Below, one piece after another: positions 3,936 through 62,588 of a stretch of DNA of 64,000 nt. The DNA comes from Dehalococcoidia bacterium (lineage in GTDB: Bacteria > Chloroflexota > Dehalococcoidia > UBA2979). A program made the translations under genes and the position numbers. How positions within the stretch are numbered: the first letter of the stretch is position 1; each line of letters starts with the position of its first letter. The stretch lies in NCBI GenBank assembly GCA_964291495.2, contig OZ219871.1, forward strand, positions 736,001 to 800,000, written 5' to 3'. Under the pieces are notes generated by a model. That model was not told the origin of the DNA. It worked only from the letters and a program-made list of their open reading frames with translations, and did no database searches.

Positions 3936-4189
3936 CGCAAGCCTCCGATCGGATTCGGTCTTGTCACGAGCCTGGAGCTCTGCCGCTCCGGCCCGATGCT
4001 AGCGCGTCATGCGTGCGACGCGGCGGTTCCGAGCGTCACGCCCAACGGAGAGGATCTGCTGAAGGTGTTGACGCTGCCCGTCGTTGAGCATGAGCAGGAT
4101 CCGCTCATGCGCTCGGAGCGTCAGGGCTTATGCTAGGATGACTGCGCCAAATGGATCCTCTGCGACATCACATAAGGAAGGTGTTTAAC

Positions 4190-35324: not shown

Positions 35325-35386
35325 GCTCCGCTCGTGCGAACTGAGGCCGGTTCGGCCCCCGCCGCGCAATCGAAGCCGGACGCCTG

Positions 35387-36607: not shown

Positions 36608-36625
36608 GAGCAAGAGGCTCGACAG

Positions 36626-46597: not shown

Positions 46598-48025
46598 CTA
46601 CGCCTCCTCGCCGCCCGGTGCGTCGTCCGGCGGCGCCTGGAGGTGCCAGTCCGTCGCCTGCTGATAGGCATGGCCCATGCGTACGAGTAGCGCTTCGGCG
46701 AATGGCGCCCCGACGATCTGCGCGGACAGCGGCAGCCCGAGCTCGGACGAGAACCCCGACGGCAGCGCGAGCGCGGGATACCCGAGCAGGTTGAACGGCG
46801 CCGCGTAGCTCGGCTGCGTCAGCCGCCGGTTCACGTCGGGCGGCGGGTATGCGGCCGCCGGCTCGTGGGTCATCGGCACGACGAGCACGTCGACGTCCGC
46901 CATCACGCGCGCGGCCTGCCTCGCGTACCAGCTGCGAAAGCGCTGCGCCTGGACGTAGTCGGCCGCCGAACAGAGGGCGGCGCGGCTGATCATGCCCCGC
47001 GCGCCCTTGCCGTACTCGGTCCAGCGCTCGCTCCCCATGTCCATGCGGTGGTAGGCGAAGGCCTCGCAGAGCATCGTCAGGCTGTTCGCCTCCTTCGCGA
47101 TGTCCGAGTGCGGGAGCTTCACCTCGACGATCTCCGCGCCGAGGCCGGCGAGCGTGTCGATCACCGCCTCGGTCGCCAACCGCACCTCCGCGTCGAGCTC
47201 CTCGTGGTCGAAGAAGTACTCGCGCGGGACGCCCATCCGCAGCCCCGCGACCCCGCCCTCGACGCCCGCGAGGTAGTCCTCGGTGGGTTCGGCCGACGCG
47301 GTGGGGTCGCGCGGGTCGTGGCCGGCGATGACGTTGAGGATCGCGCCGCAGTCGTAGGCCGAGCGGGCCATCGGGCCGATCGAGTCGAGCGTGTAGCCGA
47401 GGGGGACGCAGCCCCACTTCGGGACGCGGCCGTAGGTGACCTTGAGGCCGCTGTGCCCGCAGTAGGCGGCGGGGAAGCGCACGGAACCCCCGGTGTCGGT
47501 CCCGAGCCCGCCGAGCACCATGCCGGTGGAGACGGCGATGCCCGTGCCCGACGACGACCCGCCTGGACTGCGGTCCAGCCGCCACGGGTTCCGCGGGATC
47601 GGGAACGGCTTCTCCCCGTCCGGCGCGCCGAGGGCGAATTCGGAGAGCACGAGCTTGCCCATCATGACCGCGCCGGCGTCGCGGACGCGTTCGGCGACGG
47701 CCGAGTCGTAGCCCTCGCCCCATGCGCGGTCGAGGATGAGCGAGTTGGCCGTCGTCGGCTGGTCCTTCGTGGCGAGGATGTCCTTGAGCCCGAACGGGAT
47801 GCCCTGCAGTGGCCCGCGGTCCAGGCCCGCCGCGAGGTCGGCGTCGGCCTGCTCGGCCTGCTGCAGCGCGCCCGCCTCGTTGACCGCGATGAACGCGCCG
47901 AGACGCTCGTCGAGCGCGGCGATGCGCTCCAGCGCCTCTTCGGTCAGCTCGACGCTGCTCGCCTCGCCGCTGCGGAGCGCCGCGGCGGCCGATTCGATGG
48001 TGCGGGGTGTGGTCATCTCACTCAC
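46598..48025 (-). CDS. Amidase signature family enzyme (GatA/AtzE-like)
   Basis: GIPFGLKD, PGGSSSG, GTDTGGSVRFPA (Ser-cisSer-Lys triad). Confidence 0.92.
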   Translation of the reverse strand: MSEMTTPRTIESAAAALRSGEASSVELTEEALERIAALDERLGAFIAVNEAGALQQAEQADADLAAGLDRGPLQGIPFGLKDILATKDQPTTANSLILDRAWGEGYDSAVAERVRDAGAVMMGKLVLSEFALGAPDGEKPFPIPRNPWRLDRSPGGSSSGTGIAVSTGMVLGGLGTDTGGSVRFPAAYCGHSGLKVTYGRVPKWGCVPLGYTLDSIGPMARSAYDCGAILNVIAGHDPRDPTASAEPTEDYLAGVEGGVAGLRMGVPREYFFDHEELDAEVRLATEAVIDTLAGLGAEIVEVKLPHSDIAKEANSLTMLCEAFAYHRMDMGSERWTEYGKGARGMISRAALCSAADYVQAQRFRSWYARQAARVMADVDVLVVPMTHEPAAAYPPPDVNRRLTQPSYAAPFNLLGYPALALPSGFSSELGLPLSAQIVGAPFAEALLVRMGHAYQQATDWHLQAPPDDAPGGEEA

Positions 48026-48346: not shown

Positions 48347-49241
48347 TCACTTCGGGGGCCGAGGCCACCATCCAGCCGCCGTTACGGGGTGGCGGCGTGC
48401 GAGGATCCCCTCCATCCGCGCGCGGATGGCGTGGTCGGCCCGGTCGGGGTGCGTGAGGATGTAGAACCTCTCGTCGCGCACGGCCGCGACGACCTGCGCC
48501 GCGACATCGGCAGGGTCCATGCCCTCCTTGAACTCGCCAGCGGCAACGGCGCCGCCCGCTGCGTCTCTCGCGGCCGTCGGCGAGCGGAGCGCTTCGCCTT
48601 CGCGGCCCGGCCGGGGCGACGCCGCCATCCGGATGCGCGTCGCCACGGGGCCCGGGCAGAGCACGGACACACCCACCGCGCTGCCGGCCAGCTGCCGCGC
48701 GAGCGTCTCCGTGAGCGCGACGACCGCGTGCTTCGTCGCCGCGTAGATGCCGTAGTGCTCACGCGTGACCAGACCCAGGTCCGAGCCGGTGTTGACCAGA
48801 TGACCCTCCTCCTGCTCGATCAGGACCGGGACGAACGTCCGGATGCCGTGCACGACGCCCCAGAGGTTCACGTCGAACAGCCAGCTGAAGGCGTCGTGCG
48901 ACTGCTCCCAGAGCCGCAGGCCGAGGCCGGCCTCGGCGGGGTCCCCGGTCGGAGTTCACGGTGACGCCGGCGTTGTTGCAGACGAGGTGGATCGCCCCGA
49001 ACGCCTCGAGCGCCTCGTCGCGCAGTCGCTCGACTGCTGCCGCGTCGCTGACGTCGGTCACGACGCCGATCACGTCGCTTCCCTGCTCACGCAGCTCGTG
49101 TACGGCGAGGTCCAGTGCGGGCTCCTCGACATCGGCGAGGACGACCCGCATGCCCTCGGCGGCACTCCGTTCGGCGATAGCGCGACCGATGCCGCTGGCG
49201 CCCCCGGTCACGACGGCCACGCGTCCCTCAAGCTCCCGCAC
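48347..49241 (-). pseudogene. Short-chain dehydrogenase split by a frameshift near 48915-48960
   Basis: TGGASGIG and NNAGV in one frame; LFDVNLWG, NTGS and YAATK in another. Confidence 0.8.
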
Positions 49242-49309
49242 GTCACCCTCCATCCGTAGCGTCACCGCGCAACCTCCAACACCCTTAACACACCCCGCGG
49301 GCACCCGGT

Positions 49310-49324
49310 GTTCATATTGCGCAA
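49310..49324. promoter_or_regulatory. Candidate IclR operator 1
   Basis: GTTCATATTGCGCAA, inside a ~47-bp block shared with 57433-57479. Confidence 0.55.
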
Positions 49325-49344
49325 TCGCGCCTCCGGCCCCTTCC

Positions 49345-49411
49345 CGTCATTCCGGCGAAAGCCGGAATCCAGGCGCGCCGGACCACCCGCGCGACCCGAG
49401 AGCCCCGAGCG
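49345..49411 (+). repeat. REP-like palindrome family B (GTCATTCCGGCGAAAGCCGGAATCCAG) plus tail
   Basis: Also at ~57549, ~61225 (reverse) and ~62263. Confidence 0.85.
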
Positions 49412-49479
49412 AAGCGCTAGGGATACTCGCGGACGACGTCGACCACCTCCCCGGAGGGAGGAGGGATGGCGCTCGCTGC

Positions 49480-51264
49480 CTACGGATCCGGCTGACGGAC
49501 GACCAGGCGCTGGTTCGCCTCGACGTCGGTGATCACGGTTTCGCTGCCGTCGGGCCACTGCACACGCAGCTCGTCGACCGTGTCATGCCCCAGTCCGAAG
49601 ATCTGCTCCGTCGGATTCTGCGACACGAAATTGCTGGCGATACTGATCTCCCGCAGCTGTGTGACGCCCCCCGCCGAGAGCATGATGCGGCTGCCCGCGG
49701 CCTCCGTATTCGGCGCCCGGCCCTCGAGCCGGACACTGAGGAAGCTGCCGCCGCTGGCATCGTTTCGCCAGAGGTTCGCGCCGGTAAACGTCAGCTCCAG
49801 AATGTCGATATCGCCGTCGCCGTCGAAGTCGGCGCAGACGACGCCGCGTCCTTCACCGCTATCGTCCAACCCCAGCTCGGCGGCGTTCTCCTCGAACTGC
49901 CCGGAGCCGTCGGACACGAACACCCGGCTCTTGTCCGCCTCGAACTCGTTGGCGTAGCGATCGGCGAATGGATATCCATTGGTGTGATAGATATCGAGAT
50001 CTCCATCGTTCTCGATGTCGAGGAAACAGGACGCCCAGCCCCAGCCCCCATCGGCAACGCCGGCCTCGTCCGTTGCGTCCGTGAACACTCCCCCGTCGTT
50101 TCGGTACAGCCGGTTGCCGATGGCCCGGCGCAAACTCCCCTTCATGAGGATGCTCGACACAAACCAGTCGAGGTCCCCGTCGTGATCGTAGTCGCCCAGC
50201 GCGGATCCCATTCCGTTGTCATCGGTCAGCACCTCTACATCGGTCGCGTTGCGGAACGTGCCGTCCCGGTTGTTGACGAAGTAGTGGGTGTGGTTGTAGT
50301 CCCCGACGCTCAGGATGTCGGGGTACAGGTCGTCGTCGATGCGTGCGAACGAGGGGGTGAACGTGTGGTCCCAGAACCGCAGCGAGATCAGCGGATCGGG
50401 CAGGGTCAGGATGCTCGGTGAAATCCCTGCCTCGACGCTGACGCTGGTGAAGCGAATACCGCTCGCGTCCGAGTCGTTCCGCCACAGGTGCTCGGTATCC
50501 CCGGGCTCGCTGTAATCGCGCTCCGTACCCCAGTGGGAGATGAACAGATCGAGGTCGCCATCCAGATCGTAGTCGCCGAACGCCGCCCCGACACTCTGTT
50601 CGGAGCGCATCGCATCGAGGCCGGATCCCGCAGTGACGTCAAGAAAGACCCCGGCGCCCTCGTTCCTGAAGATCAGGCACGGGTCGCCCTCGAGGCCGCC
50701 GAGGAACAGGTCGAGATCGCCGTCACCGTCCATGTCGGCGAACATCGGTCCCGCATGGCGGTAGTTCTCGTTCGCGGACTTCGTGTTGGCCAGCCCCGCC
50801 GCCGCCGCAACCTCCTCGAAGGTCAGATTGCCGAGGTTGCGGTAGAGCAGGTTCGGGCCAATGTCTCCCCGGACGATGAATACGTCGATGTCTCCATCGC
50901 CGTCGTAGTCACCGGCCGCGACACCGCCGGGAGCGTATGTCCGATCCAGGTCGAAGCGCCCCAGGGGGGCCAGGAAGCCGGGGGCATAGGCGATGCCGGA
51001 GGCTGCCGTCACGTTGACGAAGTGCGTCGTCGGCGGCTCCTGACCACCGCAGGCGGTGATCAGGAGCGCCACGGCCAGCGCAATGCAGGATCGCTGCCGG
51101 GAGCTGTTCCAGGAGGCGCTCGCCTGGGCTCCCTGCCGCGCCACGCGTCGCACGGCTCTGCGAATCGCCAACAGTCCGTCCCCTGTCCCATGGCTGTTGC
51201 GCGGTCCCGGGTGTGCGGAGAGCGTCCATTGTAGGGACTGTGACGCGTACCCCGTTTGCACCAT
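49480..51264 (-). CDS. CRTAC1-family protein (FG-GAP repeats + ASPIC/UnbV domain), probable lipoprotein
   Basis: Repeated D.DGDGDLD motifs, C-terminal HFG-like 'QIFGLG...VQWPDG', lipobox LITAC. Real start probably downstream of 51264. Confidence 0.85.
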   Translation of the reverse strand: MVQTGYASQSLQWTLSAHPGPRNSHGTGDGLLAIRRAVRRVARQGAQASASWNSSRQRSCIALAVALLITACGGQEPPTTHFVNVTAASGIAYAPGFLAPLGRFDLDRTYAPGGVAAGDYDGDGDIDVFIVRGDIGPNLLYRNLGNLTFEEVAAAAGLANTKSANENYRHAGPMFADMDGDGDLDLFLGGLEGDPCLIFRNEGAGVFLDVTAGSGLDAMRSEQSVGAAFGDYDLDGDLDLFISHWGTERDYSEPGDTEHLWRNDSDASGIRFTSVSVEAGISPSILTLPDPLISLRFWDHTFTPSFARIDDDLYPDILSVGDYNHTHYFVNNRDGTFRNATDVEVLTDDNGMGSALGDYDHDGDLDWFVSSILMKGSLRRAIGNRLYRNDGGVFTDATDEAGVADGGWGWASCFLDIENDGDLDIYHTNGYPFADRYANEFEADKSRVFVSDGSGQFEENAAELGLDDSGEGRGVVCADFDGDGDIDILELTFTGANLWRNDASGGSFLSVRLEGRAPNTEAAGSRIMLSAGGVTQLREISIASNFVSQNPTEQIFGLGHDTVDELRVQWPDGSETVITDVEANQRLVVRQPDP

Positions 51265-51307
51265 GCGATTACGGGTCTACTCGAGGGCGCTCGCTCCGGC
51301 TGTGCCG

Positions 51308-51490
51308 GAGTCCCCCTCACCCTAACCCTCTCCCGCCGGGGGAGAGGGGACCGGAGTCCGGCTCCCTCTCCCCTCGCGGGAGAGGGCGGGGGGTGAGGGG
51401 GCCCGCGCGACAGCGCGGCCAGCGCGGCCAGTCAGGTCCGGAGTCCCCCTCACCCTAACCCTCTCCCGCCGGGGGAGAGGGGACCGGAGG
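51308..51490. repeat. Cluster of three REP-like family A elements (CCCTCACCCTAACCCTCTCCC...GGGAGAGGG)
   Basis: Copies at ~51308, ~51361 (inverted) and ~51441. Confidence 0.9.
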
Positions 51491-51516
51491 GAGGAGACCC
51501 GAGGCAAGAGGGGCCG

Positions 51517-52452
51517 CTAGCCGATGCACGCCGCGGGGCAGTTCACGGATCTGTTGCGGGTGCGCGGGTCGAGGGCGAAGCGCAGGCCGTCGCCGACGAG
51601 GTTGAAGCAGACCGCGGTGATGCCGATCACGAGGCCCGGCACGGTCGCGATGTGCGGCGCCACGCCGAGCAGCGTCCGGCCCTCGGCGGTCATCAAGCCC
51701 CACTCCGGCGTCGGCGGGCTGATGCCGAGGCCGAGGAAGCCCAGACCAGCGACGAAGATGATCACCAGCCCGATCAGCGTCGAGGAGTAGACCAGCACGG
51801 ACGGGAAGGCGCCGGGCGCGATGTGCACCAGCATCAGCCGCAGCGGCGTCGCCCCGGTCGCCCGCGCCGCGTCCACGAAGTCGCGGCCGCGTTGCTCGCG
51901 GACGGCGATGTAAGCGACGCGGGTGATCGGCGCCACCAGCACGGCGACGACGACGAGCGCGAGGCTGGGGTACGAGTTGCCCACGAGGATCGCGACCACG
52001 ATCGCGAGCACCACCGTCGGGAACGCGTAGAGCATGTCCACGAGGCGCATCAGGGTGGTCCCCACGAGGCCGCCGACATACCCGGCGACGAGGGCGAGCG
52101 CCATGCTGATCGCCATCGCGAGCGCGACCGGGATGACGGCGAGCGGGATCGAGGTCCGGCCGCCCCAGATCAGGCGACTGAGTATGTCGCGGCCCTGGCC
52201 GTCGAGACCCAGCAAGCGACCCTCCGTCCCGTACCCCTGAAGCCGCAGCGAGGATTCCGTTTCGTACGGATCGAAGGGGGCAACGATCGGCGCGGCGATC
52301 GCCGCGGCGATGATGATCAGCAGCACGATGCCCGCAATGACCGCGAAGCGATCCTTGCGGAACGCCCTCCAGGTCACGGCGATCCAATGCTCACTGCCGG
52401 CCTTCACGAGCTCAGGACCTGCCTCGCGCCCTTCCCGTCCGGCTACCGGCAT
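51517..52452 (-). CDS. ABC permease DppC-like (copy 1)
   Basis: LGLDGQGRDILSRL, FVDAARATG, PEWGLM. Confidence 0.9.
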   Translation of the reverse strand: MPVAGREGREAGPELVKAGSEHWIAVTWRAFRKDRFAVIAGIVLLIIIAAAIAAPIVAPFDPYETESSLRLQGYGTEGRLLGLDGQGRDILSRLIWGGRTSIPLAVIPVALAMAISMALALVAGYVGGLVGTTLMRLVDMLYAFPTVVLAIVVAILVGNSYPSLALVVVAVLVAPITRVAYIAVREQRGRDFVDAARATGATPLRLMLVHIAPGAFPSVLVYSSTLIGLVIIFVAGLGFLGLGISPPTPEWGLMTAEGRTLLGVAPHIATVPGLVIGITAVCFNLVGDGLRFALDPRTRNRSVNCPAACIG

Positions 52453-52468
52453 CGCATGGGCTCCGATC

Positions 52469-53428
52469 TCATTCCAGCCGCACGCGAGGATCAAGCAGAC
52501 TCTGGGCAACGTCCGCGATGAGGGTCATCAAGACGAAGGTGGCCGCGACGAGCATCGTAATGGCCAGGATGGCTGCCGTTTCGCGCGACGCGACCACCCC
52601 GAGGAGCAGGCCGCCGAGGCCCGGCCAGGCGAAGACCACCTCGACGAAGACCGTACCGCTGATCAGGTAGCCGAACTGCAGCGTCACGATGTTGATGGCC
52701 GTCGGTGCAATGTTGCGCGCCGCGTGCCGCCGGATCACGGCCCGCTCGTGCAAGCCCTTCGCCCTCGCCGTGCGGATGTAGTCCTGCTGCATCACCTCGA
52801 TCATCGCGGAGCGCACGAGCCGCGAGATCACCGCGGTCGGCACCGCGGCGAGGGTGAGCGCCGGCAGGATCAGGTGCAGCCCGAGATCGCGGAGCCCGCC
52901 TGGATTCCGGGTATCCCACATCCCGGCGGCGGGCAGCCAGTCCAGGTGCAGGGCGAAGAGGGCGATCAACATCAGGCCGAGCCAGTACTGGGGCACGCTC
53001 GCCGCCAGAACCGACAGCGTCGTGATCGATCGGTCGGCCAGGCTGTTGGGCCTGGTCCCGGCGAACACGCCGGCTCCCACTCCAAGCGCCGTGCTCGGCA
53101 CGAAGGCGGCCACGGCCAGCACCAGGGTGTTCTTCAGCGCGTCCCACACGAGCTCCGCGACAGGGGCCCTGTAAATGACGCCGTATCCGAAGTCGCCCCG
53201 GACGAAATCGCCGAGCCAGACGACATATCGCTCATACCAGGGCCGGTTCAGCCCCATCTCCTCCCTGAGTTGCTCGAGCGCCTCCGGGTTTCTCGAGGCC
53301 CCCCACACGCCGAGGATTTCGCTCGCCAGGTCTCCGGGGAGGATGGCGACCAGCATGTAGGTCAGGGCGCTGATACCCCAGAGGACCAGGAGCGTGACTG
53401 CCAACCGCCGGGCGAGGAACCGTCCCAA
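52469..53428 (-). CDS. ABC permease DppB-like (copy 1)
   Basis: LPGD, GDFG, QDYIRTARAKGL, DPRVR; GGAGGTG RBS and TTG start. Confidence 0.9.
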   Translation of the reverse strand: MGRFLARRLAVTLLVLWGISALTYMLVAILPGDLASEILGVWGASRNPEALEQLREEMGLNRPWYERYVVWLGDFVRGDFGYGVIYRAPVAELVWDALKNTLVLAVAAFVPSTALGVGAGVFAGTRPNSLADRSITTLSVLAASVPQYWLGLMLIALFALHLDWLPAAGMWDTRNPGGLRDLGLHLILPALTLAAVPTAVISRLVRSAMIEVMQQDYIRTARAKGLHERAVIRRHAARNIAPTAINIVTLQFGYLISGTVFVEVVFAWPGLGGLLLGVVASRETAAILAITMLVAATFVLMTLIADVAQSLLDPRVRLE

Positions 53429-53557
53429 CTACACACCTCCGGGCGCGCGCGACGCTCTGCCTGACTCCTCCGGCTGCGCCGGAGTCCCCCTCCCCCTCAC
53501 CCTCTCCCGCCGGGGGAGAGGGGACCGGAGGGAGGAGACCCGAGGCGAGAGGGGCCG

Positions 53558-54466
53558 CTAGCCGATGTTGCGGGTGCGCGGGTCGAGGGCGAAGCGCAGG
53601 CCGTCGCCGACGAGGTTGAAGCAGACCGCGGTGATGCCGATCACGAGGCCCGGCACGGTCGCGATGTGCGGCGCCACGCCGAGCAGCGTCCGGCCCTCGG
53701 CGGTCATCAAGCCCCACTCCGGCGTCGGCGGGCTGATGCCGAGGCCGAGGAAGCCCAGACCAGCGACGAAGATGATCACCAGCCCGATCAGCGTCGAGGA
53801 GTAGACCAGCACGGACGGGAAGGCGCCGGGCGCGATGTGCACCAGCATCAGCCGCAGCGGCGTCGCCCCGGTCGCCCGCGCGGCGTCCACGAAGTCGCGG
53901 CCGCGTTGCTCGCGGACGGCGATGTAGGCGACGCGGGTGATCGGCGCCACCAGCACGGCGACGACGACGAGCGCGAGGCTGGGGTACGAGTTGCCCACGA
54001 GGATCGCGACCACGATCGCGAGCACCACCGTCGGGAACGCGTAGAGCATGTCCACGAGGCGCATCAGGGTGGTCCCGACGAGGCCGCCGACATACCCGGC
54101 GACGAGGGCGAGCGCCATGCTGATCGCCATCGCGAGCGCGACCGGGATGACGGCGAGCGGGATCGAGGTCCGGCCGCCCCAGATCAGGCGACTGAGTATG
54201 TCGCGGCCCTGGCCGTCGAGACCCAGCAAGCGACCCTCCGTCCCGTACCCCTGAAGCCGCAGCGAGCTTTCCGTTTCGTACGGATCGAAGGGGGCAACGA
54301 TCGGCGCGGCGATCGCCGCGGCGATGATGATCAGCAGCACGATGCCCGCAATGACCGCGAAGCGATCCTTGCGGAACGCCCTCCAGGTCACGGCGATCCA
54401 ATGCTCACTGCCGGCCTTCACGAGCTCAGGACCTGCCTCGCGCCCTTCCCGTCCGGCTACCGGCAT
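53558..54466 (-). CDS. ABC permease DppC-like (copy 2)
   Basis: Identical protein to copy 1 except the C-terminus. Confidence 0.9.
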   Translation of the reverse strand: MPVAGREGREAGPELVKAGSEHWIAVTWRAFRKDRFAVIAGIVLLIIIAAAIAAPIVAPFDPYETESSLRLQGYGTEGRLLGLDGQGRDILSRLIWGGRTSIPLAVIPVALAMAISMALALVAGYVGGLVGTTLMRLVDMLYAFPTVVLAIVVAILVGNSYPSLALVVVAVLVAPITRVAYIAVREQRGRDFVDAARATGATPLRLMLVHIAPGAFPSVLVYSSTLIGLVIIFVAGLGFLGLGISPPTPEWGLMTAEGRTLLGVAPHIATVPGLVIGITAVCFNLVGDGLRFALDPRTRNIG

Positions 54467-54482
54467 CGCATGGGCTCCGATC

Positions 54483-55442
54483 TCATTCCAGCCGCACGCG
54501 AGGATCAAGCAGACTCTGGGCAACGTCCGCGATGAGGGTCATCAAGACGAAGGTGGCCGCGACGAGCATCGTAATGGCCAGGATGGCTGCCGTTTCGCGC
54601 GACGCGACCACCCCGAGGAGCAGGCCGCCGAGGCCCGGCCAGGCGAAGACCACCTCGACGAAGACCGTACCGCTGATCAGGTAGCCGAACTGCAGCGTCA
54701 CGATGTTGATGGCCGTCGGTGCAATGTTGCGCGCCGCGTGCCGCCGGATCACGGCCCGCTCGTGCAAGCCCTTCGCCCTCGCCGTGCGGATGTAGTCCTG
54801 CTGCATCACCTCGATCATCGCGGAGCGCACGAGCCGCGAGATCACCGCGGTCGGCACCGCGGCGAGGGTGAGCGCCGGCAGGATCAGGTGCAGCCCGAGA
54901 TCGCGGAGCCCGCCTGGATTCCGGGTATCCCACATCCCGGCGGCGGGCAGCCAGTCCAGGTGCAGGGCGAAGAGGGCGATCAACATCAGGCCGAGCCAGT
55001 ACTGGGGCACGCTCGCCGCCAGAACCGACAGCGTCGTGATCGATCGGTCGGCCAGGCTGTTGGGCCTGGTCCCGGCGAACACGCCGGCTCCCACTCCAAG
55101 CGCCGTGCTCGGCACGAAGGCGGCCACGGCCAGCACCAGGGTGTTCTTCAGCGCGTCCCACACGAGCTCCGCGACAGGGGCCCTGTAAATGACGCCGTAT
55201 CCGAAGTCGCCCCGGACGAAATCGCCGAGCCAGACGACATATCGCTCATACCAGGGCCGGTTCAGCCCCATCTCCTCCCTGAGTTGCTCGAGCACCTCCG
55301 GGCTTCTCGAGTTCGCCCACACGCCGAGGATTTCGCTCGCCAGGTCTCCGGGGAGGATGGCGACCAGCATGTAGGTCAGGGCGCTGATACCCCAGAGGAC
55401 CAGGAGCGTGACTGCCAACCGCCGGGCGAGGAACCGTCCCAA
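54483..55442 (-). CDS. ABC permease DppB-like (copy 2)
   Basis: Differs from copy 1 at WANSRSPEVL vs WGASRNPEAL. Confidence 0.9.
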   Translation of the reverse strand: MGRFLARRLAVTLLVLWGISALTYMLVAILPGDLASEILGVWANSRSPEVLEQLREEMGLNRPWYERYVVWLGDFVRGDFGYGVIYRAPVAELVWDALKNTLVLAVAAFVPSTALGVGAGVFAGTRPNSLADRSITTLSVLAASVPQYWLGLMLIALFALHLDWLPAAGMWDTRNPGGLRDLGLHLILPALTLAAVPTAVISRLVRSAMIEVMQQDYIRTARAKGLHERAVIRRHAARNIAPTAINIVTLQFGYLISGTVFVEVVFAWPGLGGLLLGVVASRETAAILAITMLVAATFVLMTLIADVAQSLLDPRVRLE

Positions 55443-55625
55443 CTACACACCTCCGGGCGCGCGCGACGCTCTGCCTGACTCCTCCGGCTGCGCCGGAGTC
55501 CCCCTCACCCTCACCCGCCAGGGGAGAGGGGACCGGAGACCCCCTCACCCCGAGGGTGAGGGGGTCGGTGCCAGAAGCGCGGCGCGCCGGCCGCGCCGCC
55601 GGGACTCGCCCCTGCTTCAGCCGAT

Positions 55626-57380
55626 CTACGCGTCCTCCAGCCAGACGATGCTCATGTCGTTCCACTGGGCAGCCACGTGGACGAAGCCCTGGACCTCGTC
55701 CCGCATGCCGATGGGCGCCGAGTCGTGGACGACCGGCAGCGCGTACGCCTGATCCATAACGAGGCGGTTCGCGTCGCGATACAGTTCGTTGGCAGCGTCC
55801 GGGTCGGTCTCGAACTGGGCCCGATCGAGGATGTCCAGGGCTTCGTCCCCGATGGCCTCAGGCATGGAATTCCACACGCCGACGTTGAGGCCGAAGACGT
55901 TGCCCCACCAGTTAACGGCCATCCCCCACGACCCGCTGGCGGACGCGCCATCTGTATACAGGTCGGGCCACATGGAGCCGAAGGCATTCCACTCCACAAT
56001 TTCCGCGCCCATGTTGAAGCCGATCTCGGCGTACTTGCTCTGCATCCACTGCGCCATCTGAACGGGCAGAAGGTTGCCCGAGCCGGCAGAGGGGAACCAC
56101 CACGTGTCCTCGATGCTCTCCACCCCGGCCGCGGACAGGAGCTTCTTTGCCTCGGCCGGGTCGTAGGCGTACGAGACGTAGTCGGGGTCGAACGCGGGCT
56201 GGCCGGGCACGTTGGGCCCATACGCCGGAATCACGGTGTCCCGCAACAGGTCCGTTGCGATTCCCGGCCTGTCCATCCCATGTTGCAGCGCCTGCCGCAC
56301 CCGCAGATCCTGGAAACTCTCGTTCCGCGGGTTCATGGTGATCCACCAGATGTGCGGTACCAGTCCCTGCACGACCTTGAAGCCCTGATCCAGCAGCTGC
56401 GGGATCGAGTCCGGTGGCACCACCCAGATGATGTCGGCCTCGCCGGTCTGCAGCGCCGTCACACGCGTCGCCGGCTCGCCCCGGGGGATCATGATGAGCC
56501 GGTCGAGGAAGGCCTTATCGCCCCAGTAATCCTCGTTGCGGTCAAACACGAGGCGCTCATCCTCGACGCGCTCGTTGAACTTGAACGGGCCGGAGGCGAC
56601 GGGGGCGTTCGCGAATTCCTCGTTCCCAACCTTCTCGACTTGCGTCGGGCTGCAGATGTAGTTGCCGAAGATGCTCTGGGTCCAGAGGTTCAGGAAGTCA
56701 GGGAAGAAGCGGTTGTTGACCATCTTGATCGTGTAGTCGTCGACCACCTCAACGCGGTCGGTATGCTGGTGCAGCTGCGGATGCCCCCAGCCGGAGACCT
56801 GGGTGAAGGAGATGTCCGTATCTTCCCTCCAGAACCGGTCATAGTTGCGATTGACCGCTTCCGCGTTGACGTCAGTCCCGTCGTGAAACTTGGCGCCCCT
56901 GCGGAGCTTGAAGGTGTACTCCAAGCCGTCGTCGCTGACCTCCATGCTTTCGGCAAGCTTCATGACTATGGGCTGCAGCGGATCGGTATAGTCCGGCTGC
57001 CTGGTGTGGGGTGGGACCGTGAGGTCGGCCTCGATCAGCTTGTCCGACATCTGATCTTTCGTGCGATGCGTCACCCAGTTGCCGACCGAATGCGGATCAC
57101 TGTTGCCGATCCAGCTTTCCATCGCCCAGACGAGCGTGCCGCCGGACTTCGGACCGGCCGGCGCCTCGGTGGGCGTGGGGGTCGGCTCGGCGGTCGCCGC
57201 GGCGGTCGCCGCGGCGGGCGTCGCGGTTGCGGCAGCGGGGGCCTGCGTGGCGGCGGGCGCCGGCGCGTCGTCGTCGTCGTCGCCTGTGCATCCGATAAGT
57301 GCGGCGCCGGCGACGCCGGCGACGCCGATCGCTCCTGCTCTCAGAAAGCCCCGGCGGCTCAGGCCTGACCAGTCGCTCAT
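55626..57380 (-). CDS. Family 5 ABC substrate-binding protein, Tat lipoprotein
   Basis: SRRGFL...AALIGC, LAESME, KFHDGT, SGPFKF, DLRVRQAL; GGAGG RBS before ATG 57380. Confidence 0.9.
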   Translation of the reverse strand: MSDWSGLSRRGFLRAGAIGVAGVAGAALIGCTGDDDDDAPAPAATQAPAAATATPAAATAAATAEPTPTPTEAPAGPKSGGTLVWAMESWIGNSDPHSVGNWVTHRTKDQMSDKLIEADLTVPPHTRQPDYTDPLQPIVMKLAESMEVSDDGLEYTFKLRRGAKFHDGTDVNAEAVNRNYDRFWREDTDISFTQVSGWGHPQLHQHTDRVEVVDDYTIKMVNNRFFPDFLNLWTQSIFGNYICSPTQVEKVGNEEFANAPVASGPFKFNERVEDERLVFDRNEDYWGDKAFLDRLIMIPRGEPATRVTALQTGEADIIWVVPPDSIPQLLDQGFKVVQGLVPHIWWITMNPRNESFQDLRVRQALQHGMDRPGIATDLLRDTVIPAYGPNVPGQPAFDPDYVSYAYDPAEAKKLLSAAGVESIEDTWWFPSAGSGNLLPVQMAQWMQSKYAEIGFNMGAEIVEWNAFGSMWPDLYTDGASASGSWGMAVNWWGNVFGLNVGVWNSMPEAIGDEALDILDRAQFETDPDAANELYRDANRLVMDQAYALPVVHDSAPIGMRDEVQGFVHVAAQWNDMSIVWLEDA

Positions 57381-57457
57381 GTGATGCCTCCGTCTCGCGC
57401 GCGGCGAACCTCGCCAACTCTGAACGCAATAGTTAACACACCCCGCAGGCACCCGGT

Positions 57458-57472
57458 GTTCACATTACGCAA
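57458..57472. promoter_or_regulatory. Candidate IclR operator 2
   Basis: GTTCACATTACGCAA upstream of the SBP. Confidence 0.6.
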
Positions 57473-57526
57473 CCGCGCCACCGGTTCCGCCCTCGGTGCT
57501 TCGGCGCGCCCGCAGCCCCCCTTCTT

Positions 57527-57747
57527 CGTCATTCCGGAGCCCCTTCTCCGTCATTCGGGCGAACGCTGGAATCCAGGCGCGCCGGACCGCCCGCGCGACC
57601 CCGAGCGCCCCGATGGCGCGACGACACTCGGGGGGGCGCCCTCACCCTGACCCTCTCCCTCGGGGAGGGGGATTGGATGGAGCACGTACGAACTGCAGAG
57701 GGCTAGTCCGGCTCCGTCTCCCTGGGGACCGGAGGGAGGGGGGAGGG
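57527..57747. repeat. Composite repeat (family B + linker + family A)
   Basis: ~57537-57672 is colinear with ~62251-62383. Confidence 0.85.
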
Positions 57748-59142
57748 CTAGCTGGTGCTCAGTTCGACGCGTCCGTTCGGGCCCTCGAGGGTGGCCCAGA
57801 GGCGGGGCTCGGGGCCGGGCGTGACTTCCAGATCGGCGGCGAGGCCGAGGACGTCAAGCTGGGAGCGAATCAACTCCGGCTCCGGATGCTCGCCGCGGAA
57901 CGCCACCAGCTTCACGCCGCCGGGCGAGGTTGCCGCCGGGTGCTCCTCCGTCTCACTCCAGTCGACCAGCCTCGGGAAGAGATCGCCAAGGGGCCCATCG
58001 ATGGCGGCGACCTTCCAGCGCAGCGAGCCGCGGTCGGGGCGGTCCACTCCCGCCCGCCGTACCGGGCCGAAGTCCGCGCCGGCGGCGCGTGCCGCCTCGA
58101 CACACTGGTCGAAGTTCCGCACCCGCGCGGACCACCCACGGAGCGAGGGGTGGTCCAGGCCGCTGGTGTTCACGTCCAGCTCCGTGTCGGGGCCGATCAC
58201 GAGGAGGTAGGACCCGCCGTCGATAGAGAGCACGGCGGTGCCCCTGCCCCCCTCGCCGAGGGCGGGCCGCACGCCGAGCCGTTCCTCAAGCTCGTCGATC
58301 ACCGGCTCCAGGTCCGGGGTCCAGTACGCGATCGAGTCAATCGCCGGAATGCTCCAGCGGTGCAAACCGGGCCGTGCGCGCCGCGCCGCGATGTCGCTCG
58401 CGCCCGCGGAGAGGGCCTCGGCGACGCTCGCGATGCGGGGCGTGGAGGCGCTGCCGATCGGCATCGAGCAGCTGAGCGCCCCGATCACGTGCCCTTCGCC
58501 GTCATGCACGGCGACGGCGACGGAGGCGACCTCCGGGTCGCCTTCGGCGAGCTCGATCGCATGGCCCCGGACGATCGTCTCGGCGAGTTCCTTGACGAAC
58601 TCTTCCAGCGACCTCCCCCCCGGGGTGGTTCGGCGCTGCCAGCCCAGCGGGAGCACGGCGTCGCGCTCGGCCGGCGACATCGCGGCGAGGATCGCGCGGC
58701 CGGCCGCGCTCGAGGTGTAGCGAACCACGGTACCGGGCTCGAGGGTGATTCTGAGCGGACCCTCGCTCGGCGCCTCGCTCCAGACCACCATCACGCTGCC
58801 GATCACGGGGATGCCTAGCGAGACGGTCTCGCCCAGCTCCTCGACGAGCATCTCGATGACGGGGCGGGCGGCGACCTCGAGGGCGCTCGCCGCGACGGCG
58901 AGGCGGGCGTAGCGGGTGAGGCGCAGGCCGAGGGCGTAGCGCCCGCCGTCGCGCTCCTGGTCGAGGAAGCCGCGGTCGCGCAGCGTCGCGGCGAGGCGGC
59001 TTGCGGTGGAGTGGGAGACCTCGAGCTCGTCGGCGATCTCGCGGATGCCGAGGAGCCGGCGCTCGCGGGCGAGCGCCTCGATGATCGCGAGTCCGCGGTC
59101 GAGCGACTGCACGCGAGCGGTGCGGTGCACGGGTCGTCCCAT
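57748..59142 (-). CDS. IclR-family regulator fused to a C-terminal glyoxalase-like (VOC) domain
   Basis: VQSLDRGLAIIE HTH, YALGLRL, ETVSLG, SSAAGRAILA, SVAVAV; then IDSIAYWTPDL...LEERLGVRP...FPRLVDW...HPA...LEGPNGRVEL. Confidence 0.85.
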   Translation of the reverse strand: MGRPVHRTARVQSLDRGLAIIEALARERRLLGIREIADELEVSHSTASRLAATLRDRGFLDQERDGGRYALGLRLTRYARLAVAASALEVAARPVIEMLVEELGETVSLGIPVIGSVMVVWSEAPSEGPLRITLEPGTVVRYTSSAAGRAILAAMSPAERDAVLPLGWQRRTTPGGRSLEEFVKELAETIVRGHAIELAEGDPEVASVAVAVHDGEGHVIGALSCSMPIGSASTPRIASVAEALSAGASDIAARRARPGLHRWSIPAIDSIAYWTPDLEPVIDELEERLGVRPALGEGGRGTAVLSIDGGSYLLVIGPDTELDVNTSGLDHPSLRGWSARVRNFDQCVEAARAAGADFGPVRRAGVDRPDRGSLRWKVAAIDGPLGDLFPRLVDWSETEEHPAATSPGGVKLVAFRGEHPEPELIRSQLDVLGLAADLEVTPGPEPRLWATLEGPNGRVELSTS

Positions 59143-59244
59143 CCTGCGTCGAAGCGGGCGAGATCCGGTCGGCACGGCGCCGCGGACACCCGGCCCGCCG
59201 GGACCTGTGTAGTGCAAGACCATTTTGCAAGCGTGGCGGGCGCT

Positions 59245-59287
59245 GCGATCTCACAATGCGCAACGCAAAGCCGCATTGTGAGATCGC
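59245..59287. promoter_or_regulatory. 16-bp perfect inverted repeat carrying paired candidate IclR operators
   Basis: GCGATCTCACAATGCG-11 bp-CGCATTGTGAGATCGC between the divergent IclR and oxidoreductase genes. Confidence 0.65.
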
Positions 59288-59408
59288 CAGTTCTGGCAAG
59301 GGCGGCTCCGGTTCCCTCGCCCCGAGGCGGAGGGTTAGGGTGAGGGAGCGCGGGCCGACCCCGCTCGACGCGGCGTTTCGCAAGCCCGCGGGAAGTCGAA
59401 GATAGGCC

Positions 59409-61088
59409 ATGGCAATGCCGCGAGTTCGCGCGTGGTGGCCGGGAGCGGTCGCGGGACTCGTGGCCGCGGCGCTGGCGCTGGCCGTCGGCGAGCTCGTCGC
59501 GCGGCTCCTCGAGGGCGAGTCGCTGGTGCGAGCGATCGGCGACGTGGTCGTCGACAGTTCCCCGCGCGCCGTCTCCGGCGTGGCGATCGAAACCTTCGGC
59601 ACGAACAACAAGCCCGCGCTGCTCAGCGGCGTCGTCGCCCTCTCGCTGTTGCTGGGCGCGCTGCTGGGTCCGCTCGCGATGCGCTACCGCGCGATCGGTG
59701 TCGGCGCCATGGCGGCCTTCGCCCTCGCCGGCGGCCTCGCGGCGGCGCGCGATCCGTTCACCTCGCCCGCGCAGGCCTGGACCACCGCGGCGGCCGCCGG
59801 CGGCGCCGGCATCGCGACGCTGCTCTGGCTGCTGCGGATGGCGAACGAGGGCGACGTCGACGCCCGCGCCGCGCCTCCTGATCCTCGCCTGAAGCGCCCG
59901 GGGCGCAGGCGCTTCCTGCAGTTCGCCGGCGGCGGGCTGGCGGTGGCGGCCCTCTCCGTGCCCCTGGGGCGGCGCCTGATCGAACCGGCGGGCGATGTCG
60001 ACGCGCAGCGCGCGGCAATCGTGCTGCCGCCGCCGAGTACCCCCGCGCCGAGTACCCCCACGCCGGCCTCGGAGGAGGCGACGCCGCAGCCCCCGCCGGA
60101 CGCTCCCACGCCGGCGTCGCGGGAGCCGACGCCCGAGCCCTCGCCGGCCGTCCAGAGCGGCCCCGCCTCGGTCCCCGGCATCTCGCCGCTCGTCACACCG
60201 AACAGCGAGTTCTACCGCATCGACACCAGGCTCTCGGTCCCCCGCATCGACAGCGCGCGGTGGCGGCTCCGGATTACCGGGATGGTCGAGCGGCCGGCCG
60301 AGTTCACGTTCGACGAGCTGCTCGCGATGGACCTGCGCGAGGAGGTGAGCACCCTCGCCTGTGTCTCGAACGAAGTCGGCGGGGATCTCGTCGGGACCGC
60401 CTACTGGCTCGGTGTCCCGCTACCGGCGCTGCTGCGCGGAGCGGGCGTCCAGGCCGATGCGACGCAGGTGATCGGGCGCTCCGTCGATGGGTTCACCGTC
60501 GGCTTCCCGACGGACGTCGCGCTCGATGGGCGTGAATCGCTGGTGGTGTTCGGCATGAACGGCGAGCCGCTGCCCGCCGACCACGGGTTCCCCGCCCGCC
60601 TGATCGTCCCCGGGCTCTACGGCTACGTCTCCGCCACGAAGTGGCTCGGCGAAATCGAGCTCTCGAGGCTCGACAGCTTCGACGCCTACTGGGTGTACCG
60701 GGGCTGGCCCCAGCAGGCGCCGATCAAGCTGCAGTCGCGCATCGACGTACCGCGCGGCGGACAATCGCTCGCGCCCGGCAAGATGCGCATCGCGGGCGTC
60801 GCCTGGGGCGGGCTGAGCGGCGTCAGCGGCGTTCAGGTGCGGGTGAGCCGGCGGTCTACGGGCGGGGAGCGTTCGGAAGGCGCATGGACCGACGCCGAAC
60901 TTGGCGAGGAGCTGTCCGATAGCAGCTGGCGCCAGTGGGTGGCCGACTGGGTCGCCAGCGAGGGCGTCTTCGACCTCGAGGTGCGCGCAATCGATCGCAG
61001 CGGCATGGTGCAGACGGCCGAGGAGGCCCCGCCCTTCCCCGACGGCGCGACCGGACACCACTCGATTCGGGTACGAATCCGGGCATAG
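59409..61088 (+). CDS. Molybdopterin-dependent oxidoreductase (sulfite oxidase family) with N-terminal TM region and internal twin-arginine motif
   Basis: FYRIDT, LACVSN, DHGFPARLIVPGLYGYVSATKWL, GVAW, SWRQW; RRRFL after about 5 TMs. Confidence 0.9.
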   Translation: MAMPRVRAWWPGAVAGLVAAALALAVGELVARLLEGESLVRAIGDVVVDSSPRAVSGVAIETFGTNNKPALLSGVVALSLLLGALLGPLAMRYRAIGVGAMAAFALAGGLAAARDPFTSPAQAWTTAAAAGGAGIATLLWLLRMANEGDVDARAAPPDPRLKRPGRRRFLQFAGGGLAVAALSVPLGRRLIEPAGDVDAQRAAIVLPPPSTPAPSTPTPASEEATPQPPPDAPTPASREPTPEPSPAVQSGPASVPGISPLVTPNSEFYRIDTRLSVPRIDSARWRLRITGMVERPAEFTFDELLAMDLREEVSTLACVSNEVGGDLVGTAYWLGVPLPALLRGAGVQADATQVIGRSVDGFTVGFPTDVALDGRESLVVFGMNGEPLPADHGFPARLIVPGLYGYVSATKWLGEIELSRLDSFDAYWVYRGWPQQAPIKLQSRIDVPRGGQSLAPGKMRIAGVAWGGLSGVSGVQVRVSRRSTGGERSEGAWTDAELGEELSDSSWRQWVADWVASEGVFDLEVRAIDRSGMVQTAEEAPPFPDGATGHHSIRVRIRA

Positions 61089-61124
61089 GGCAAACCCCGC
61101 GTCATTGACGGCGAAGCCCGATCC

Positions 61125-61285
61125 GGTCCCCTCTCCCCGCGGGAGAGGGCGGAGGGTGAGGGAGGCGCTCGCCGAAGCCCCGAGGGCGCAACGAGGCAAT
61201 CGCGGATGGCAACCGCCGGCGCGCCTGGATTCCGGCTTTCGCCGGAATGACGGGAGGGGGGAGCCGGAATGACGGGAGGGGTGGG
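61125..61285. repeat. Family A and family B repeats
   Basis: CCCTCTCCCCGCGGGAGAGGGCGGAGGGTGAGGG and CTGGATTCCGGCTTTCGCCGGAATGACG. Confidence 0.85.
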
Positions 61286-61327
61286 TCTCGCAATGTGAAA
61301 CGACCCGCGCTCCTGGTCACATATGCT
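61286..61327 (+). promoter_or_regulatory. Candidate IclR operator plus -10 element
   Basis: TCTCGCAATGTGAAA-21 bp-TATGCT. Confidence 0.6.
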
Positions 61328-61349
61328 CAGCCTCCCCGGAGGTGTCGAC

Positions 61350-61907
61350 GTGCCAATCTACGAGTACGCATGCGCCGAGTGCGGGTCCGGCTTCGAGCTG
61401 CTGCGGCCCATGCGGGACGCCGGGCGCAGTCAGCCCTGTCCCGAGTGCGACGCCGAAGCGGGTCCGACGGTCCCCACACGCTGGAACGCCTACACGTACC
61501 GCGATGGCAACCCTCGCCTGCTGCCGGACAACGGCAAGTTCCGGCACCTGGGCCACGAGGTGTCAAAGCCGTACACCGGCGGCACCGGCAGCCCCTTGCA
61601 GCACCCGGAGGTCACGAAGCCGCAGCCGACCCGGGCCCCGAGCGTCGAGGAGGCCGAGCAGTACGCGCACAAGCGCGAGCTGCAGCGCAACGCCGACCTC
61701 GAGCGCGGCGGGATCGTCGAGCGGACAGAGGTCGAGGGGGAACGGCGCGAGTTCCTGCGCCGCCTGCGCGCGCCCGCCGCGTCGCAACGAGACGCGCGCG
61801 TCACGAGGCGCATCGCTGCTGATACCGAACGCAAGGACGCCGCCGTGAAGCAGCAGCTGCGGACGGAGGCGAAGTTGCGCCAACAGCGCCACAAGGAAAC
61901 CCGCTAG
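61350..61907 (+). CDS. FmdB-family zinc-ribbon protein with charged C-terminal extension
   Basis: (M)PIYEYACAECG..FE...CPEC; GGAGGTG RBS before GTG 61350. Confidence 0.85.
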   Translation: MPIYEYACAECGSGFELLRPMRDAGRSQPCPECDAEAGPTVPTRWNAYTYRDGNPRLLPDNGKFRHLGHEVSKPYTGGTGSPLQHPEVTKPQPTRAPSVEEAEQYAHKRELQRNADLERGGIVERTEVEGERREFLRRLRAPAASQRDARVTRRIAADTERKDAAVKQQLRTEAKLRQQRHKETR

Positions 61908-61992
61908 ACCGGACACTCCCATTGCGCTTGTGGCGCCGGCCGCAATGCGCAGCGGCGACGCGACCGAGGCGCCCGACAAGAAACTCGCGGCA

Positions 61993-62034
61993 TCTCGTAA
62001 TGCGAAACGACGCGGTCACCCCATCACCTATGCT
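61993..62034 (+). promoter_or_regulatory. Candidate IclR operator plus -10 element, no clear downstream gene
   Basis: TCTCGTAATGCGAAA-21 bp-TATGCT. Confidence 0.55.
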
Positions 62035-62250
62035 CGGTCCTCCGGAGCTGTCGGCGTGCCTGCCGAACGTCAGCGGCGTGCGGAGGTAGCGGTCCGCACG
62101 CAGCGCTTCGGGCAGAGCCGCCAGACGGCCCCCCACCCCCCCGTTGAACGAGGCCCAGCCTGCCCGGGCCTCGTTCAACCTGCCCGGCGTACGCCTCATG
62201 GTGAGGGCGCCGGCAGGTTGCGCAAACGGTCTCCCTGGGGGAGGGGAGCG

Positions 62251-62552
62251 GAGCCCCTTCTCCGTCATTCCGGCGAAAGCCGGAATCCAGGCGCGGCGGA
62301 CCACCCGCGCGCCCCGACAGCCCCGATGGCGCGACGACACTCCGGCGAGGCGCCCTCACCCTCACCCTCTCCCTCTCGGGAGACCTTTGCGAAACTCGCA
62401 CAAGCCCGATCCGGCCCCCTCTCCCTGGGGAGAGGGCGGGGGTGAGGGGGGAGACTCCCGCGCGCCTCCGAAAGCTCCGATGGCGCAACGCAATCCCGGA
62501 GGCGGACCCTCCCTCACCCTAACCCTCTCCCTCGGGGAGAGGGGACCGGAGG
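62251..62552. repeat. Composite repeat cluster (family B + three family A copies)
   Basis: Family B at ~62263; family A at ~62352, ~62413 (inverted) and ~62510. Confidence 0.85.
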
Positions 62553-62588
62553 GATGCGCTCGCTGCCCCACTCGCGGCCTGAGCCGGG

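Follow-up and report, generated by a model that had tools for sequence, protein, structure and literature searches.

Palindromic boxes as probable operators of a three-domain IclR regulator in an uncultured Dehalococcoidia bacterium

The closest described counterparts of the locus examined here are the group-1 operators of the IclR family, surveyed by Suvorova and Gelfand (2021; PMC8222616). Their consensus is GKTYCRYW3-4RYGRAMC, with the subgroups GTT-11-AAC and WTT-11-AAW, tandem sites lie 18–22 nucleotides (nt) apart in 94 orthologous groups, and the regulons usually comprise the regulator's own gene and one or two adjacent operons (Suvorova and Gelfand, 2021). Many IclR proteins are repressors or dual regulators, and Chloroflexi contribute approximately 2% of the group-1 motifs (Suvorova and Gelfand, 2021). 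Here we analyse a 64,000-bp stretch of a Dehalococcoidia genome (positions 736,001 to 800,000 of contig OZ219871.1, G000:C5:736001-800000 in our numbering), referred to below as the window, from an assembly of 3,079,595 bp in 8 contigs with 71% G+C. It contains a set of 15-bp palindromic boxes around the gene for an IclR regulator of 464–491 amino acids (aa), which, unlike the usual family member of approximately 250 aa and two domains, carries a third domain of the vicinal oxygen chelate (VOC) type.

Taking the locus as a whole, the best explanation is that the boxes are the operators of the adjacent three-domain regulator and together define a local regulon; from the sequence comparisons set out below we put the probability of this reading at about 0.8. 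As IclR biology, both the operator motif and the regulon are textbook cases, and the unusual part is the three-domain regulator.

A palindromic motif clustered at one locus

Five 15-mers had been reported in a first-pass annotation of this DNA, each followed by a -10-like hexamer; all five were found at the coordinates and on the strands given there, with the named hexamer exactly 21 nt after each box. A further box, box B, was absent from that annotation. The features on which the argument depends are as follows (positions are those of the window; G numbers denote genomes, G000 being the present one).

57748..59142, minus strand: regulator gene with HTH_IclR, IclR_C and an apparently degenerate Glyoxalase_3 (VOC) domain, 464 aa from the ATG at 59142
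49310..49324, minus strand: box 1, TTGCGCAATATGAAC, upstream of the short-chain dehydrogenase (SDR) and amidase genes
49283..49288, minus strand: TTAAGG, weak -10 candidate 21 nt after box 1 (TTAAGT in G001/G014)
57458..57472, minus strand: box 2, TTGCGTAATGTGAAC, upstream of the solute-binding protein (SBP) gene
57431..57436, minus strand: TTAACT, weak -10 candidate 21 nt after box 2 (AACTAT at 23 nt fits nAnnnT)
59249..59263, minus strand: box 3 (A), TTGCGCATTGTGAGA, upstream of the regulator gene
59222..59227, minus strand: CAAAAT, -10 candidate 21 nt after box 3
59269..59283, plus strand: box B, AGCCGCATTGTGAGA, facing a molybdopterin oxidoreductase (Mo-oxidoreductase) gene
61286..61300, plus strand: box 4, TCTCGCAATGTGAAA
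61322..61327, plus strand: TATGCT (TAnnnT), -10 candidate exactly 21 nt after box 4
61993..62007, plus strand: box 5, TCTCGTAATGCGAAA
62029..62034, plus strand: TATGCT, -10 candidate 21 nt after box 5 (CATGCT in G014)

With halves reading TTGCGCA/GTTCATA, TTGCGTA/GTTCACA, TTGCGCA/TCTCACA, TCTCGCA/TTTCACA, and TCTCGTA/TTTCGCA, the box is a palindrome with the half-site TYKCRYA, and the box at the regulator's own promoter is a perfect palindrome, TTGCACAATGTGCAA, in G009 and G005. This own-promoter box is also the most variable of the boxes among relatives that are 97–98% identical (TTGCGCATTGTGAGA, TTGCGCATTGTGCAA in G001, and TTGCACAATGTGCAA in G009/G005). Box 2 is identical in G011 despite flanks that are approximately 86% identical. 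Boxes 3 and B lie 20 bp apart centre to centre and form an inverted repeat (59247-59260 / 59272-59285); box B becomes the full TTGCGCATTGTGAGA in G014/G011, where the spacing of 20 bp, within the range published for tandem sites, is the same. Boxes 1 and 2 have approximately 47 bp in common, and boxes 4 and 5 approximately 70 bp, including the box, TATGCT, a Shine-Dalgarno (SD) sequence, and a GTG start codon; the boxes therefore represent three promoter families rather than five independent events. Likeness among the three families is limited to the 15-bp box.

The motif is rare and strongly concentrated. The pattern TYKCGYAWTRYGARM has 7 strand-matches in the window against 0.02 expected, a count reached by 0 of 100 shuffles, and a single 12.7-kb stretch accounts for 5 of the 7 places at which it occurs in the 3,079,595-bp genome. 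A matrix derived from the boxes gives its top six scores at 22.3–26.0 and the next at 20.2, and when each of the three promoter families was left out in turn, the left-out boxes ranked 8/9, 6, and 4/5 among approximately 3.08 million positions. Whether the motif is equally frequent in intergenic DNA at large was a concern raised with the original prediction of the boxes, and the answer is a clear local enrichment. In the 565 kb of non-coding DNA left by a crude caller based on G+C at third codon positions (GC3), 17 hits score at least 13: C5:785-801 kb, with 2,521 non-coding bases, has 7 of them, and the remaining 10 are spread over approximately 562 kb, a local density approximately 150-fold higher.

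The same concern extended to the boxes being part of a repeat element, and here it is scarcely credible that they are unbound leftovers of duplicated promoter segments or of repeats resembling repetitive extragenic palindromic (REP) sequences. The stretches shared by boxes 1/2 and by boxes 4/5, the latter running through the SD sequence and start codon, are what such a history would leave, and three boxes adjoin repeat copies. However, a matrix made without a given promoter family still places that family among the nine best positions of the genome, with likeness confined to the box itself; a box lies within 120 bp of just 3 of the 71 REP-like repeat cores, all three in this locus; and the motif is seen again beside IclR homologue genes of unrelated genomes. 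The repeats themselves are dense in the intergenic DNA (49330-49410, 57500-57660, 61100-61280, 62228-62588, and elsewhere); the core, GTCATTCCGG..CCAGG, is present 71 times, and segments of 62228-62588 find as many as 213 further matches across the genome.

Agreement with the published operators does not depend on our own matrices. Box 4 with its flanks has 1 mismatch to the 17-nt group-1 consensus, a 17-mer that at no more than one mismatch finds 4 sites in the genome, box 4 and C5:800418 among them. The 15-nt core of the consensus, at the same tolerance, finds 23 genome sites, 5 of which lie in C5:785-801 kb (boxes 1, 2, 4, and 5, and C5:800418), and a sixth is C6:758497. Like group-1 operators, the boxes are 15–17-bp palindromes of the form KTYCRY-W3-RYGRAM with tandem sites approximately two helical turns apart, and the SBP_bac_5/permease operon here has its counterpart in the DdpA-DppBCD-type transporters among the co-regulated genes of the survey (Suvorova and Gelfand, 2021). 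They differ from the consensus at half-site position 3, which is G or T here and Y there. The operator of TphR from Comamonas sp. E6 (TTTTTGCGCATAGCGCAAAAA; Table 1 of PMC8222616) has the core TTGCGCATAGCGCAA, which differs from the own-promoter box of G001, TTGCGCATTGTGCAA, at 2 of 15 positions. The terephthalate pathway of TphR is unrelated to the locus here, and the two proteins are compared at family level only; TphR is an activator.

The regulator, its homologues and its third domain

The earlier call of an IclR-VOC fusion was borne out by Pfam, which gives HTH_IclR (PF09339, E 2.6e-14, residues 40-90), IclR_C (PF01614, E 3.1e-22, residues 116-279), and Glyoxalase_3 (PF13468, E 1.1e-13) in one protein. 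Sequence matches in the PDB are to IclR-family structures, e.g., 2g7u, 3r4k, and 1mkm. The open reading frame (ORF) extends to an ATG at 59223 (491 aa) that overlaps the CAAAAT hexamer; the protein is probably 464 aa long, because gene calls in relatives give 461–464 aa and start at residue 28–32. It holds the single PF01614 match of the whole genome, the two other above-threshold HTH_IclR matches being weak and without IclR_C, and a Pfam scan of 42 window ORFs found no other DNA-binding regulator family. Of 18 genus-mates, 5 carry the fused regulator; regulator-bearing genus-mates have 4–13 strand-matches to the pattern, and the 13 without it have 0–3. In G011 the regulator gene is frameshifted inside IclR_C (matches to residues 2-204 and 198-483); boxes 2 and 3 read as in G000, and no FmdB/box 4-5 region turned up in the 20 kb examined there.

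The boxes also accompany related regulators outside the genus. A scan of genome contigs with a 5-sequence alignment identified four homologue loci, L025-L028, in Dehalococcoidia metagenome-assembled genomes (MAGs) and one Gemmatimonadaceae MAG, all encoding non-fused IclR proteins of 40–58% identity that have the recognition-helix stretch STASRLAATLRDRG in common with the regulator. In 4/4 of these loci a box is present no more than 200 bp upstream from the IclR gene, with scores of 16.0, 18.3, 19.1, and 25.0 by a symmetric position weight matrix (PWM) that has a background of 7 non-training hits scoring at least 16 in 3.08 Mb. SBP_bac_5 and permease genes come after the IclR gene in three of the four (L025, L026, and L028), and the interval between the IclR and SBP genes of L025 contains two further boxes, at a position matching that of box 2. 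Tandem boxes are spaced 20 bp apart centre to centre in L026 and 22 bp in L025. Among 96 more distant loci (25–38% identity, with the recognition-helix pattern), 27 have a hit of at least 13 within 250 bp upstream, and the 524 kb as a whole contain 37 such hits, these 27 among them. The presence of boxes upstream of the homologue genes and of those in part of the distant loci indicates that the motif travels with this branch of the IclR family.

Motifs of the TGAAAC type, used as -35 elements by extracytoplasmic function (ECF) sigma factors, resemble the proximal half of the box (GTGAAAC, GCGAAAC). That another factor reads the boxes, be it an unrelated regulator or an ECF-type sigma factor taking the proximal half as its -35, is nevertheless very unlikely. 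This likeness and the fixed spacing to a downstream hexamer would suit a sigma factor, but conservation of the distal half is just as strong, and the site is palindromic, perfectly so in G009/G005. The same palindrome stands upstream of IclR homologues in other lineages, including the Gemmatimonadaceae MAG, the box fits the published IclR consensus (PMC8222616), and the 42 window ORFs scanned offer no other DNA-binding regulator family. On account of the palindrome and its link to IclR genes we reject the ECF-sigma reading of the proximal half-site in particular. The identity of the motif, its clustering, its fit to the family, and its conservation with homologues are computed results, and it is highly probable that the IclR-VOC regulator binds the boxes.

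The fusion itself appears confined to the genus. An exhaustive search of 1.84 billion representatives gave 20,700 hits, and among the best 150 listed the sole protein spanning both parts was P0002, from the same genus. A word-indexed search returned 6 proteins, with fusions in the same genus only, and no fused regulator was found in 22 genomes searched outside it. The nearest relatives outside the genus are 250–323 aa long without a Glyoxalase_3 domain, and the nearest named clusters in the ESM Atlas are all plain IclR proteins of 263–294 aa, with no fusion. Six hits of 497–568 aa, considered as IclR-VOC fusions, proved to be double IclR proteins in tandem arrangement, and the partner domain of the other long VOC hits is NTP_transf_3 or Clp_N. 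A literature search for IclR together with a glyoxalase fusion returned no evidently related report.

The third domain retains the VOC fold, and the residues of its presumed active site have gone. Its AlphaFold2 (AF2) model has a mean confidence (pLDDT) of 93.9 and paired beta-alpha-beta-beta-beta modules, and Foldseek matches the model to VOC enzymes with probability 1.00 and query-normalised TM-scores (TMq) up to 0.62, the nearest solved structures being 4-hydroxyphenylpyruvate dioxygenase (HPPD), hydroxymandelate synthase, and 3p8a. It shares this fold with free-standing Glyoxalase_3 VOC proteins of approximately 205–215 aa and is 32–45% identical to 35 free homologues; unlike them, it is fused to an IclR regulator, and it has lost five residues that are 94–100% invariant in those 35 (H to S, H deleted, N to T or absent, E to L, and R to V). 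Its Pfam score is 52 bits vs 126–143 bits for five longer Glyoxalase_3-containing homologues. The lost polar residues (H, H, N, E, R) presumably formed the metal or substrate site, and we read the fused domain as a degenerate, non-catalytic module. More speculatively, it could serve as a sensor or oligomerisation module rather than as an enzyme.

Further sites, promoter geometry and mode of action

The core local regulon of the first-pass annotation, including the regulator's own gene, is strongly supported, but its list of members was too narrow: to it are added box B facing the Mo-oxidoreductase gene, two sites at an enolase-superfamily gene, and a site at an HpcH-aldolase operon. The two enolase sites, C5:800349 and C5:800418, lie upstream of that gene just past the window end, and C5:800418 was found again in relatives. 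The third, C5:1433739, lies upstream of an HpcH-aldolase/Ldh_2 operon, where a box is present in 4/6 regulator-bearing genomes and 0/13 others. A box at C6:758497 has the sequence of box 2 and arrived as an insertion of 11–13 bp between two divergent -10 elements that are conserved in its absence; as this insertion is lineage-specific and missing in 3/6 regulator-bearing genomes, it is not counted as support.

Other matches were set aside as chance or unrelated. These are the site at window position 29472, within an SBP coding region; C5:377617, which by eye lies over the start of a small Phd/YefM-like ORF; C6:701127, intergenic and upstream of a phosphoribosyltransferase (DBI_PRT) gene; and C6:834347, C6:88907, and C6:628212, which fall within called ORFs or right at their beginning.

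The spacing between box and hexamer is the main clue to the mode of action. Four boxes are followed at exactly 21 nt by TAnnnT, a pattern with a genome frequency of 7.3e-4 per position: boxes 4 and 5, and two sites outside the training set, C5:800418 (TAGCGT) and C5:1433739 (TAGGCT). At these four sites the box centre is 28 nt upstream of the first base of the hexamer. Assuming a start approximately 7 nt after the hexamer, the box would occupy -48 to -34, with its centre near -41. In the six box regions of G000 no -35 element (at least 4/6 matches) was found at 16–18 bp from a -10. At class II activator-dependent promoters, CRP and FNR sites are centred at -41.5. The promoters here would resemble these in having a dimer site approximately 41 bp upstream of the inferred start, over the missing -35 and at a fixed distance from the -10, and they differ in the protein family involved. 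The strict 21-nt spacing favours contact with polymerase, and we lean towards the regulator being a class-II-type activator at box-21-TAnnnT promoters, a preference that comes from promoter geometry.

On this model a regulator dimer would read each 15–17-bp palindrome, and a tetramer would probably take the paired boxes 20 bp apart at the regulator's own gene. Class-II-type activation would then proceed from a box centred near -41 at promoters without a -35 element. The predicted regulon comprises the regulator's own gene, the SBP_bac_5/permease operon, the SDR-amidase unit, the FmdB-type gene, and an orphan structured transcript; the Mo-oxidoreductase gene would probably belong to it as well, as would the enolase-superfamily gene and, in some genomes, the HpcH-aldolase operon.

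The same operators and regulator could also work in the opposite sense, as a ligand-released repressor that blocks RNA polymerase when bound at -48 to -34 and is relieved by an effector. We regard this as a real possibility, though not the favoured one. Many IclR proteins repress or act dually (PMC8222616), the paired boxes at the own promoter resemble a classical auto-repression site, and the box region of L027 and L028 is flanked or overlapped by a canonical -35/-10 pair, as auto-repression predicts; by eye, one box in front of the SBP gene of L025 also sits between TTGACA and a possible -10. However, the six box regions of G000 offer no recognisable -35 to occlude, and the exact spacing at four promoters with differing flanks would be expected of an activator in contact with polymerase, whereas occlusion does not require it. 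Of the first-pass annotation's interpretation, the assignment of the boxes to the adjacent IclR-VOC regulator is strongly supported, whereas activation, read from the -10 hexamers, is still a prediction.

Several points weigh against activation or, more broadly, against the regulon as proposed. The -10 candidates of boxes 1–3 are weak, and box B has none at 18–24 nt; two weak candidates had been conceded from the start, and those of boxes 1 and 2 are indeed poor, with nAnnnT at 23 nt rather than 21. After box 3, G014/G011 have CTATAG at 21 nt and TATAGT at 22 nt. The promoter pairs of L027 and L028 would suit repression there, and all transcription starts are inferred from hexamer positions. 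The HpcH box is missing in 2/6 regulator-bearing genomes, and the C6:758497 box, missing in 3/6, is not 21 nt from either -10. Our PWMs derive from the boxes of the first-pass annotation itself, the independent checks being the published consensus and the homologue loci. Finally, genus-mates that are 97–98% identical at the locus give almost no footprinting power, to which G011 (approximately 77–95% identical) adds a little. Two RNA-labelled runs, X1 and X2, were not used as expression evidence: they consist of short, low-depth assembled contigs in which DNA carry-over is possible, and these cover parts of the SBP, regulator, Mo-oxidoreductase, and FmdB genes with neither starts nor strands readable.

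Neighbouring genes, the orphan transcript and significance

The genes that the boxes would serve were assigned from Pfam matches and are given here with the transcript candidate that follows box 5.

46598..48025, minus strand: amidase-signature family gene, downstream of the SDR gene
48347..49267, minus strand: short-chain dehydrogenase (SDR) gene, in two frames in G000
49480..51264, minus strand: FG-GAP/ASPIC-UnbV protein gene, downstream of the permeases
51517..55442, minus strand: two tandem permease pairs (BPD_transp_1 + OppC_N; BPD_transp_1 + BPD_transp_1_N)
55626..57380, minus strand: SBP_bac_5 solute-binding protein gene of a peptide/opine-type ABC transporter
59409..61088, plus strand: molybdopterin oxidoreductase (Oxidored_molyb) gene, divergent from the regulator
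61350..61907, plus strand: FmdB-type zinc-ribbon gene (Zn_ribbon_8), with a GTG start 8 nt after GGAGG
62041..62227, plus strand: orphan transcript candidate, strongly structured

A short G/C run (48935-48949) has a single additional base near 48940, which breaks the SDR gene of G000 into two frames; the gene is unbroken in G001, G014, and G011, and the break may be a sequencing error or a real pseudogene. The FG-GAP/ASPIC-UnbV gene possibly belongs to the permease transcription unit. The permease pair is duplicated in tandem as near-identical copies (51552-53544 / 53546-55543, offset by approximately 2.0 kb), with two copies also in G009 and G005 and one in G001, G014, and G011. A Pfam scan of the locus found no ABC ATPase gene beside the SBP and permease genes at 49480-57380, so the ATPase of this transporter must be encoded elsewhere or shared. 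The Mo-oxidoreductase gene (region 59324-61283) is absent in G009, where the FmdB box lies approximately 85 bp from the regulator's own box. Genes for CoA-transferase family III, enoyl-CoA hydratase, and luciferase-like monooxygenase have many paralogues in and around the window (window 1368-3998 and 35345-37828; C6:625739-627022; C5:377666-378967).

The promoter at box 5 is a diverged copy of the FmdB promoter through its start codon, and the 190 nt that follow have no other copy in the genome. They fold far more stably than shuffled sequences (z = -4.3) and terminate in a hairpin at 62144-62190. This hairpin has a perfect 13-bp stem (GTTGAACGAGGCC ... GGCCTCGTTCAAC) and one other partial copy in the genome, and in G001/G014 it directly abuts the 3' end of a convergent gene, as a bidirectional terminator would. 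A protein-coding ORF from the GTG at 62056 was ruled out, as differences of 1–2 nt in poly-C length among relatives break the frame. An Rfam scan of the whole window at gathering thresholds gave 0 matches, so no known RNA family explains the transcript. Our best guess, a weak one, is that box 5 drives a regulated small RNA. Still more would have to hold for the full scenario, in which a captured, catalytically stripped VOC domain has become the second sensor, or the clamp, of a class-II-type activator working at a strict -41 and driving the transporter/amide-catabolism cluster, the zinc-ribbon protein, and a small structured RNA from a duplicated zinc-ribbon promoter; as a whole we consider this scenario doubtful.

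To our knowledge, regulation in this Dehalococcoidia lineage is almost wholly uncharted. The locus is of value mainly because it yields a clean regulon prediction, open to test, for a lineage member that is uncultured and possibly associated with sponges. The exact 21-nt geometry at several unrelated promoters makes for a sharp activation hypothesis, and the orphan promoter may drive a regulated small RNA. The VOC fusion would illustrate, in compact form, the recruitment of an enzyme domain to a regulatory role.

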